25,069 bases of DNA from the NCBI GenBank assembly GCA_964016885.1, contig CAXHJY010001725.1, positions 1 through 25,069 on the forward strand. Reading direction: 5' to 3'. The stretch comes from Eledone cirrhosa (Eukaryota). The number at the start of each line of letters is the position of its first letter. Positions within the stretch are counted from its first letter, which is position 1. The position numbers and the translations under genes were made by a program. The notes beneath the pieces are model-generated. The model was not told where the DNA came from. It worked only from the letters and a program-made list of their open reading frames with translations, and made no database searches. Below are positions 5,158 through 7,121 of the stretch, piece after piece.

Positions 5158-5228
5158 TATATATTTTATCTGATGAAAACGTACTGAAACACCATTGTAC
5201 CTTTGAAATATGTATAATAAAATATATA
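5158..5228 (+). ncRNA. Complete type I hammerhead ribozyme motif
   Basis: 12-bp stem I (5158-5169/5217-5228), CUGAUGA 5170-5176, stem II aaacguac/guaccuuu (7 of 8 pairs), GAAA 5205-5208, near-palindromic stem III AUAUGUAU, predicted cleavage after A5216. Confidence 0.8.
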
Positions 5229-5276
5229 CTTTGGTTATGATAATATTTCTCATTTATTAATATTTTGAATAATATT

Positions 5277-5525
5277 ATATATATATATATATATATATAT
5301 ATATATATATATATAATATATATATATATATATATATATATATAATATATATATAATATATATATATATAATATATATATAATATATATATAATATATAT
5401 ATATATAATATATATATATATATATATATATATATATAATATATATATATATATATATATATAATATATATATATATATATATATATATATATATAATAT
5501 ATATATATATACATATATATATATT
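5277..5525. repeat. (TA)n microsatellite
   Basis: Read directly. Confidence 0.95.
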
Positions 5526-5607
5526 TATTAAACATTTGATATATATTTATCCTTATCGAGCCCTCTTTGGATTTTAGTCTTCAAATTTATTATTATTACT
5601 ATATATA

Positions 5608-5790
5608 TGGATTGGCAGTATCGGTAGAGGGTCGGACGCCATGCTTTCCAGCATAGTTACGTCCCTTTACGATCTGAGTTCAAATCCCGCCGAGGTTGAC
5701 TTTGCCTTTCATCCTTACGGGGTCGATAAAATAAAGTACCAGTAATGCACTGGGTAATTGCTGGCCTTGTGCCTAAAGTAGAAACAATTA
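5608..5790 (+). mobile_element. tRNA-derived SINE, copy 4
   Basis: Box A-like tggcagtatcgg 5613-5624, box B gagttcaaatcc 5676-5687, conserved central block, AT-rich tail. Confidence 0.92.
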
Positions 5791-5974
5791 TATATACTAT
5801 AGGCACCCGTTTGACGTGTGTTGTATTGAAGCGAATAACTATGTGTATACTCTGAGAATGTATCTTACATTACCTATTGAGTACGCTGAGATACAACAGG
5901 TCCTGCATTGATAAATATGCTGGGTCCGTCAAGTCCTTATTAATATATATATATATATATATATATATATATAT

Positions 5975-6169
5975 ATAGGAGAAAGTATGACCCTGACGGC
6001 AGAGCTCAAGCCGTTTCGACGGCTATTTCTGGACAGAAATAGCCATCGAAACGGCTTGAGCTCTGCCGTCGGGTTCATACTTTCTCCTATTACCCACTCT
6101 ACTCCCCTAAGTATTGAGTACTCTGGAGCGTTATGGTCCATCTAGTTCCTTACCACAACTACTTCGTTA
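5975..6169 (+). mobile_element. (TA)n-embedded element beginning with a 56-bp-arm palindrome (PLE-like inverted end)
   Basis: Arms 5975-6030 and 6035-6090 match at 53 of 56 positions around a 4-nt loop (ggac). (TA)n flanks both sides. Confidence 0.85.
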
Positions 6170-6329
6170 TATATATATATATATACCGCCTATGGAAGCA
6201 TCTGAGCTACCATCAGACACATATATATATAATAGTATAACACTGGAGGTTATAACCGCAGTAGTAGAGCACTCAGTCCATAGGACGAGTTAGGTAGAAG
6301 TAGTTCCACAACAGTTCACCATTACCGAG

Positions 6330-6360
6330 AACAAATGTTTCACCTTATTCGGATCCTCAG
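6330..6360 (-). ncRNA. Hammerhead core lacking an evident stem I
   Basis: Minus strand reads CUGAGGA-uccgaauaaggu-GAAA-cauuug-UU. Stem III ACA/UGU forms, stem II is weak and stem I was not found. Confidence 0.4.
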
Positions 6361-7055
6361 TTAGACCGACCTCTTTCTACCGTCGCGACCCCTGGTGTCC
6401 CCATACAGCCCCGTCTGAGGAGGGAGCCCCGTAAGGTGGGGGTGGCTGTTACAGAGGGTGTTTCTTCGTGGTAATACCTTTGCCTTTTTGGGTGTGGGGC
6501 TGAGGCATCGCTGGGGTGAAGTATATGTCCCTCCCGCTCTCTTTCGTCGCTTGATCTTTTCCTCCTTTTCTTCTTTCTTTTGTTCCCTTTACCAGTGTTT
6601 TGATGTATAAACCTTGGCTTATATACAGTGTGGGTGGGGGAGGGGTGAAGGTGTGTAGGGGGAGGGGGGTTGAGGATGTGAAGTTGGACGGGGGTTGGGG
6701 TGCAGTTGGGTTAGGAGGGGTGAAGTTGGGTGGGAGAGAATGGGGAGGTGGAGTCGGGTGGGTGGGTGAGTTTGCGGCGAGGGGGGTTGTGATGTGTATT
6801 GGGTGGCACACTGATGTAAATAAGGATGAAATACCTTAACTATGTTTTGGGGTAAGAAACATCCCCCTCCCCCAATCACAGTTAACGTACCTACATACCT
6901 CTCTCACCACCACTCCCTCTCACCACCTCTCCCTCACCCCCCTCCTTGTCTGTCACTCACTGAACACATGCGTGTAAATATATATTATATCTATCTAACT
7001 ATATATAGAAATACATCATATTAATAAATGGAAACTATATTTATAAAACCATAAT

Positions 7056-7121
7056 TATTTTATTATATATATTTCAAGGGCAACCAAGACAAATTTTGGT
7101 GCGCTTTCATCAGATAAAATA
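7056..7121 (-). ncRNA. Complete type I hammerhead ribozyme motif
   Basis: Minus strand reads uauuuuau-CUGAUGA-aagcgcaccaa.aauuuguc.uugguugcccuu-GAAA-uauaua-UA-auaaaaua, giving an 8-bp stem I, a long stem II and palindromic stem III AUAUAUAU. Confidence 0.82.

Follow-up and report, generated by a model that had tools for sequence, protein, structure and literature searches.

Type I hammerhead motifs of Eledone cirrhosa in pLTR fragments of two subfamilies of a Penelope-like element with Hydra-clade motifs

Introduction

Hammerhead ribozymes in the pLTRs of Penelope-like elements (PLEs) are already well known, and those of the Hydra clade have been tabulated, an octopus family included. The hammerheads of PLE pLTRs cleave weakly, and they do so as dimers or trimers (PMC4209133). 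In the 26 published Hydra rows (PMC8557442, File S2 as interpreted here) the pair 10.1-11.1 is G-C in 7, G·U in 4, U·U in 14 and U·C in 1 case, i.e. closing pairs other than the canonical G-C are the norm in this clade. The cleavage triplet AUA occurs in nature, as in ELVd(+), where it is active, if slow, and it was the slowest of four triplets in a post-transcriptional assay (PMC1636495). Finally, hammerhead cleavage was not required for the insertion of PAc, an anole PLE, in vitro, and in the same study RNA-seq reportedly gave no reads that terminate at the site of the cut (PMC11167929).

Here we describe two hammerhead motifs, A and B, in a stretch of 25,069 nt (the window, i.e. the whole stretch of DNA that was analysed) of Eledone cirrhosa, whose 3.0 Gb genome is rich in microsatellites. 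Our reading, to which we give a probability of roughly two in three, is that A and B are pLTR hammerheads of two Penelope-like subfamilies with Hydra-clade motifs, that the window holds 5'-truncated copies, and that a dimeric cut after AUA is likely.

Two hammerhead folds in the window

The features of the window that concern the two motifs are the following (coordinates, strand, description and basis).

5027-5063, no strand: (TA)n microsatellite bordering element A on the left, the insertion target (sequence)
5061-5152, minus strand: inverted tail/5'-UTR segment of element A, post-hammerhead in full-length copies (88.7% over 97 nt to locus L151)
5155-5275, plus strand: direct 3' pLTR fragment of subfamily A (96.9% to L151; 100% over 121 nt to 10 places)
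5158-5228, plus strand: hammerhead A, type I (sequence, strict scan, folding, covariation)
5270-5523, no strand: long (TA)n microsatellite bordering element A on the right (sequence)
7014-7194, minus strand: direct 3' pLTR fragment of subfamily B, 5'-truncated (similarity to loci L198 and L207)
7056-7121, minus strand: hammerhead B, type I (sequence, strict scan, folding, covariation)
7145-7150, minus strand: splice-donor-like G/GTATGT, 37 nt upstream of the core (sequence; the counterpart is cut away in copy A)
7191-7268, plus strand: inverted tail segment of element B with a (TA)n end (86-91% to the post-hammerhead stretch of L198/L207)

As read from the sequence, motif A (plus strand) has a 12-bp stem I (5158-5169/5217-5228), a CUGAUGA core at 5170-5176 and a stem II formed by 5177-5184/5197-5204, in which C5180·C5201 is left unpaired; GAAA (5205-5208) is followed by UAUGUA, U5215 and A5216, and the predicted cut falls after A5216 (AUA). 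Motif B (minus strand) has an 8-bp stem I (7121-7114/7063-7056), the core at 7113-7107 and a stem II that spans 7106 to 7076, with C7103·C7079 unpaired and one bulged U, and its predicted cut falls after A7064 (AUA). The palindromic helix III lies at 5208-5215 in motif A (+) and at 7072-7065 in motif B (-). In both motifs stem I is an A/U tract and is followed by CUGAUGA; next come stem II, with C·C at its fourth position, and GAAA, and a near-palindrome of six bases then leads through UA into the 3' strand of stem I. Within stem II, pair 3 is A-U in A and G-C in B, and pair 6 is U-A and C-G, respectively. These differences, the shared C-C mismatch and the sequence as described in a first-pass annotation agree base for base with the window. 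Both copies have the type I features, i.e. the core C3-U4-G5-A6-N7-G8-A9, G12-A13-A14, A15.1-U16.1 and an H17 that is not G; according to RNAalifold and the pair counts, helices I and II are present and the open end is at helix I. The canonical closing pair G10.1-C11.1 is absent from both window copies, which have A-U instead.

Motifs A and B are the sole matches of a strict scan of both strands of the window, and their local alignment score is 119 as opposed to 46±7 (maximum 75) for 300 shuffles. Genome-wide, the exact 17-mers of A and B occur 684 and 9,188 times, respectively, and their reversed controls 0 times each, which means that the motifs are not due to chance. Scan, alignment and 17-mer counts together bear out the earlier proposal that A and B form a homologous hammerhead pair. 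The 5'-half motif shared by the superfamily has 68,347 matches in the genome as compared with 270 for its reversed control; when the first 30 of the 68,347 were read by eye, 29 were family members and 24 had the core and the 3' strand intact. A chance resemblance in AU-rich, microsatellite-rich DNA could be argued from the modest folding z-scores of the single molecules (-1.65 for A, -1.24 for B) and from Rfam, where the best 150 of the 210 window matches listed include no hammerhead family, only microsatellite-driven miRNA/snoRNA noise, and where a rescan of 5080-5280 (the motif A region only) gave 6 rows, again without a hammerhead family. Chance is nevertheless refuted by the excess of motif matches over the control, by the covariation and by the fixed place of the motif within an element, both of which are described below. 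We conclude that motifs A and B are homologous type I hammerhead folds, for which self-cleavage is predicted.

A third, unrelated minimal hammerhead core is found at 17516-17546 (+) of the window. It has an extra A after A9, its stem II is a G-C-rich stem of 4 bp and the palindrome is CG, which agrees with the published PLE consensus; stem I is unpaired with the following C-run. The window also contains another repeat end in two copies, one at 4850-5026 and one at 5980-6170, and this repeat recurs beside many of the loci examined; the second copy has a long inverted repeat (around 5982-6083), is of the truncated-plus-inverted form and adjoins (TA)n. A SINE-like dispersed repeat at 5610-5790 is common to many loci, and in some cases it is inserted inside the hammerhead elements (L049, L089). 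Broken RT fragments with QGDSLSP and FMDD at 11661-13406 (-) belong to what we take to be a non-LTR retrotransposon, with a zinc knuckle and a restriction-like endonuclease end after the RT. Very long (TA/TG)n and (TAG)n arrays occupy 21780-25069 and 4110-4720, and the contig consists of the 25-kb window alone.

Copy number and nature of the window copies

The two motifs belong to two sister subfamilies of one Penelope-like element superfamily. A query with 5140-5275 gave 55 matches when 40 of 707 candidates were scored, and 10 of these were 100% identical over 121 nt. Sister subfamilies with a G-C closing pair account for 3,141 matches of a 3' pattern, and the sister subfamily F, with the palindrome UGCGCA, has 25,186 matches. 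Copies of subfamily F are near-identical, have the strongest palindrome (-10.5 kcal/mol for the duplex) and lack a donor-like site; they look young, and one F-type locus pair (L245/L246) also flanks ORF pieces. The host genome holds a very large Hydra-type expansion, with tens of thousands of copies of the element.

The subfamily A fragment at 5155-5275 is 5'-truncated right before the hammerhead and ends in (TA)n. The subfamily B fragment at 7014-7194 is 87.5% identical over 200 nt to the 3' pLTR of L198, a copy with two hammerheads, and 90.2% identical over 173 nt to L207, both loci being B-type. Two end classes about 90 nt apart define an optional tail, and the ends lie at fixed sites in (TA)n. 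In both window copies a 5'-truncated pLTR end and an inverted tail segment are set in (TA)n, which is the classic aborted form. The two are thus no special pair but pLTR fragments of high-copy Penelope-like elements, and the copies are in themselves unremarkable. They lie on opposite strands, so both cannot sit in one transcript, and most likely they are ordinary inert by-products that would need a partner in trans to cleave.

The full element

A stretch of about 1.3 kb upstream, common to two A copies, ends in the C-terminus of an endonuclease, and in 13 of 25 loci of 3.2 kb hammerhead A lies about 1.1-1.4 kb downstream of the endonuclease end. One copy, L151, is near full-length: it consists of hammerhead A, 250-260 nt, a broken ORF (stops, frameshifts), a long 3'-UTR and a second pLTR that ends early at (TA)n, and its ORF contains the motifs RWR, DKT, MGxSDSA, YRDD, CxCX5C and YIGAT. 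The motifs of the RT and of a C-terminal GIY-YIG-type endonuclease follow each other in order in the single ORF of L151-L158 and L192. The copy L260 (L008/L260), identical over 121 nt to the motif A copy, continues to the ATG of the ORF. The genome has 7,404 candidates for the ORF start, of which 150 were scored, and 20 ORF regions were chosen from these for their long open frames; 6 of the 20 have two same-strand hammerheads, 4 have one and 10 have none. Where the ORF lies between two same-strand hammerheads these are 2.9-4.0 kb apart, and the 6 include the B-type copy L198. None of the ORFs seen is intact: the 151 matches listed contain open frames of at most 689 aa, and all copies that were read are broken. 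The anatomy of the element is a pLTR with a hammerhead, a 5'-UTR of about 250 nt, an RT-linker-endonuclease ORF, a 3'-UTR, a second pLTR with a hammerhead and an optional tail of about 90 nt.

Pfam gave no hit on four ORF pieces. Among the Atlas look-alikes of the L192 ORF, which have scores of 0.95-0.96, are clusters with RVT_1, GIY-YIG and HTH_animal, domains that are carried by 13-100% of the members of the Atlas neighbours. The Hydra-clade motif RWK is seen as RWR (K to R), and the DKT that replaces DKG in this clade is likewise present, in L151, L153 and most of the 20 ORF regions. The CxCX5C linker is present, and so are the CxxC and CxH that flank conserved E and N (the translation of L146 being among the sources), while CCHH, judged by eye, is absent from the ORFs as in the Hydra clade; insertion is into (TA)n, as expected of this clade. 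The element thus carries Hydra-clade protein motifs, and on these motifs it fits the clade, its likeness to Hydra-1_Obim being judged by eye.

The first flanks that were inspected had suggested that A and B are units of a non-autonomous tandem retrozyme, i.e. of 170-400 nt repeats arranged head to tail that give rise to circular RNA. A type I hammerhead with a palindromic helix III agrees with that idea, as does the shortness of most copies, and an origin from PLE pLTRs has been proposed for animal retrozymes (10.64898/2026.07.22.740005). It was rejected when the longer context turned out to contain inversions and a 3'-UTR. Paired copies are mostly inverted, not head to tail, copies overall are mostly solo or inverted, and they end in (TA)n at one or other of two fixed sites of the tail; both subfamilies, moreover, run into the RT-endonuclease ORF, and these ORF-linked copies largely refute the retrozyme, which we consider highly improbable.

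In most subfamilies a donor-like G/GTATGT precedes the core by 26-47 nt; a donor-like site no more than 90 nt upstream is present in 119 of 179 copies, and subfamily F has none. An acceptor-like CAATAG precedes the ATG in subfamilies A, C, D and E, but not in B. A spliceosomal intron in the 5'-UTR is known in some PLEs. Spliced genomic copies numbered 0 among 9/9 ORF-start matches and 0 among 30 further ORF starts, an absence that is weak evidence because PLEs retain introns. Given that the acceptor is not common to B and that no spliced copy was found, a hammerhead inside a 5'-UTR intron is a lead only.

GIY-YIG ORFs near some copies (L054, L033) had also been considered as the partner ORF of the element. 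They were rejected, since a different hammerhead and a (TA)n tract intervene in L054, and the true partner was found by walking upstream. L054:1-1030 and L069 (minus strands) represent a different PLE family with a C-terminal GIY-YIG and a hammerhead-like core of its own. A subfamily B copy sits inside the (TA)n tail of this other family in L054, which shows that PLEs nest in each other's ends.

Covariation in stem II

Of the 228 matches within the loci, 28 lacked a 3' half or lay too close to a locus end and were removed, and merging of duplicates left 179 copies. A and B are over-represented among these, and the filters used in the search predetermined the core and portions of stems I and III. 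In stem II, pairs 1, 2, 3, 5, 6 and 7 are formed in 174, 178, 173, 166, 174 and 169 of the 179 copies, respectively, the pair types being A-U, G-C and G·U. A position-ordered sample of 15 distinct copies gave a similar picture, with 14-15 of 15 paired at the stem II pairs and 0 of 15 at position 4. The closing pair 10.1-11.1 is A-U in 130, G-C in 24 and G·U in 20 of the 179 copies. The first-pass annotation had called the A-U pair atypical, which holds with respect to the canonical G-C, but not within the family, where A-U prevails and only 24 copies have G-C.

Among 20 hand-picked representatives, both sides have changed at 5 of 7 positions of stem II and at 0 of 8 in stem I, and the covariation score was reached by 0 of 500 shuffles, a control that ignores relatedness. 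RNAalifold recovered stems I and II with position 4 open and did not predict helix III. In a tree-based R-scape-like test pairs 2, 3 and 6 had E<0.05 among 21 proposed pairs, but the same test over all 1,378 pairs gave none that was significant, and a non-structural pair ranked at the top.

The phylogenetic distribution of the changes is more telling. Pairing is kept in 25 of 28 propagated (internal-branch) changes of stem II and in 19 of 52 private (tip) changes (Fisher p=5e-6). When a threshold of three tips is applied, 25 of 26 and 22 of 57 keep pairing, and on a flank-only tree 23 of 26 and 26 of 59 (p=1e-4), respectively. This contrast shows that the fold is kept in transposing elements and decays after insertion, i.e. 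structural selection on stem II is real and acts on propagating elements. Selection at the level of structure had been postulated for the two window copies; it holds for propagated lineages, but since private changes mostly break pairs it is silent on function at the two window loci. On the tree, G-C and A-U appear to have been interchanged mostly via G·U, two transitions being direct, and G·U-type intermediates are found beside ORF starts. The natural G-C, G·U and A-U forms represent a ready allelic series.

The core and the unpaired C10.4

When copies were sought with a profile in which the core was not obligatory, 213 were obtained, and of these 206-212 conserve any given one of 11 core positions. 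Some core change is present in 25 of the 213; N7 is C or G in 21, varying in whole subfamilies, and H17 is A in 211. Position 4 of stem II is C·C in 139, C·U in 18 and C·A in 12 of the 179 copies, and it is paired in 5. C10.4 has 0 propagated and 7 private changes, as compared with 2-7 propagated changes at each of 10.1-10.3, 10.5 and 10.6. The partner of C10.4 has undergone two changes, one to U and one to A, but none to G; two events have little power, so the safer claim is that of a conserved unpaired C. We speculate that C10.4 might make a tertiary or protein contact, and we point to it as a single nucleotide singled out for direct testing.

These data bear on the main rival to our reading, which assumes the same element but holds that the fold persists chiefly because the RT-endonuclease recognises it, or through overlap with a promoter or with splicing signals, in vivo cleavage being negligible. 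It is the main rival because PAc inserts without cleavage in vitro, its hammerhead mutants inserting normally (PMC11167929). AUA is, in addition, a slow triplet (PMC1636495), and both stem I, with both-side changes at 0 of 8 positions, and C10.4, with its 0 propagated versus 7 private changes, look like cases of sequence-specific constraint. The core, however, displays a catalytic pattern of conservation, with 11 near-fixed positions, scattered changes, a free N7 and A at H17 in 211 of 213 copies, and the palindrome is retained; on balance we regard a mere recognition role as unlikely.

Helix III and the proposed dimeric cleavage

In a monomer, helix III would consist of 2 A-U pairs around 4 nt at a cost of about 2.9 kcal/mol, and 8 bp can form only between two copies. 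Relative to the minimum, the active fold of the monomer is less stable by 3.7-4.5 kcal/mol. The dimer fold has -19.6 (A) and -23.0 kcal/mol (B), versus -8.0 and -10.4 for two active-fold monomers, and the cofold minima are lower than the dimer fold by 0.3 (A) and 1.9 kcal/mol (B). The inner two positions of the palindrome, which are too close for intramolecular pairing, are complementary in 177 and 176 of the 179 copies, although this is partly built in as some search patterns fixed palindrome letters; among the 20 hand-picked representatives the count is 19 for each, with UAUGUA, UAUAUA and UGCGCA spanned. For the palindrome pairs the tree test gave no significance (E 0.26 and 16), and a single lineage accounts for their double change. 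The conserved palindrome of helix III points to dimeric cleavage.

We infer the following mode of action. A transcript would run through both pLTR hammerheads that flank the ORF; the two would probably pair via their palindromic helix III as a domain-swapped dimer and cut the RNA after AUA, and the unit-length transcript released in this way would serve transposition. As the monomer helix III is costly and published PLE hammerheads need multimers, a transcript dimer that cuts out unit-length RNA is the likeliest model.

Efficient cleavage by monomers would require that a tertiary contact at the stem II mismatch offsets the weak helix III, in which case solo copies would cut host transcripts. 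Stem I is long (12 and 8 bp) and the core intact in both window copies, and the conserved unpaired C is near the canonical contact sites of loop 2, which in canonical hammerheads lie near position 4 of stem II. Opposed to this are the cost of closing helix III and an active fold well above the minimum, as given above, together with private changes that mostly break stem II, so that copies decay after insertion. A single minimal PLE hammerhead also gave no cleavage (PMC4209133). We therefore find monomer cleavage very unlikely, and the description of A and B as the best candidates for active ribozymes is doubtful as far as monomers are concerned, their helix III having 2 A-U pairs around 4 nt.

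An additional arrangement deserves mention. In L006 a subfamily C hammerhead (around 2270-2340, +), with a loop 2 of 4 nt and C·A at position 4, is found 760 nt from a same-strand A copy, and the two would be a candidate cis heterodimer if transcribed.

Several of the above points can be joined into a more far-reaching reading, which we consider quite unlikely. According to this, the hammerheads would form a distinct subclass in which the unpaired C docks on the A/U stem I of the partner and makes the AUA/A-U-closed dimer fast; the ribozyme would lie in a 5'-UTR intron, so that splicing would give a ribozyme-free mRNA while unspliced RNA would cleave itself and become the transposition template. 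Some of the tens of thousands of solo copies might moreover cut host transcripts in trans as heterodimers, which would be possible since stem I and the palindrome are compatible across subfamilies.

Comparison with known systems

It is instructive to compare the element with the Hydra-clade PLEs (Craig et al. 2021, PMC8557442). The two are alike in the C-terminal endonuclease, DKT, RW[KR], the CxCX5C linker, CxxC and CxH around E and N, and (TA)n targets, as well as in a type I hammerhead near the 3' end with a palindromic helix III, and in tandem or inverted insertions with a tail. There are a number of differences. Firstly, the published Hydra rows have a GUH triplet in 26 of 26 cases, and AUA, like A-U at 10.1-11.1, is absent from these rows (PMC8557442). 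Hydra-1_Obim, the sole octopus family tabulated, has a different hammerhead (GUU), and the conserved mismatch at position 4 is found here but not in the published Hydra table (PMC8557442). Secondly, the distance from hammerhead to hammerhead is 2.9-4.0 kb, whereas published Hydra elements are generally under 3 kb, and the tail measures about 90 nt as opposed to the 30-40 nt described for PLEs (PMC8557442). The accessible main text of a paper on the repeats of O. vulgaris mentions neither ribozymes nor the Hydra clade (PMC13282606). In the passages of the literature that were consulted, no hammerhead unites AUA with a variable closing pair, a long A/U stem I and an unpaired C10.4. Lünse et al. 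2017 reportedly survey PLE hammerhead variants and may already list the AUA/A-U variant.

The minimal, short-helix-III hammerheads of PLEs (Cervera and De la Peña 2014, PMC4209133) are similar in their pLTR location, their long stem II (7-8 bp), the palindromic helix III, the many solo copies and the close inverted pairs; we also count as likenesses the families "full of covariations" and the dimer requirement. In their consensus A9 is followed by an extra nucleotide and G10.1-C11.1 is conserved, whereas here the register is straight, without the extra nucleotide, and the closing pair varies; stem I has 4-5 bp in Schistosoma as opposed to an A/U tract of 8-12 bp here, where in addition position 4 is unpaired (PMC4209133). 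Animal non-LTR retrozymes are short head-to-tail non-coding repeats, in contrast to the ORF-linked pLTRs of the present element (PMC7229834, 10.64898/2026.07.22.740005).

The AUA triplet is shared with ELVd(+), csc RNA(-) and sCYDV-RPV(+), but these are viroid or satellite RNAs with a stable helix III of 5-6 bp that cleave as monomers (PMC1636495). AUA had been noted in the window as an atypical trait, but it is not unique, being a known natural triplet of active viroid hammerheads (PMC1636495).

PAc, the Poseidon element of Anolis carolinensis, is likewise a PLE with a pLTR hammerhead and with two genomic end points that define a tail (PMC11167929). It belongs to another clade, and its ORF starts inside the hammerhead, while here the ATG is about 250 nt downstream; its hammerhead has been shown to cleave, as against the predicted cleavage of the present ones (PMC11167929). 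That cleavage was dispensable in vitro for the one PLE that has been purified (PMC11167929) is the context in which the comparative evidence presented here is to be seen, namely that fold, core and palindrome are kept in the lineages that spread.
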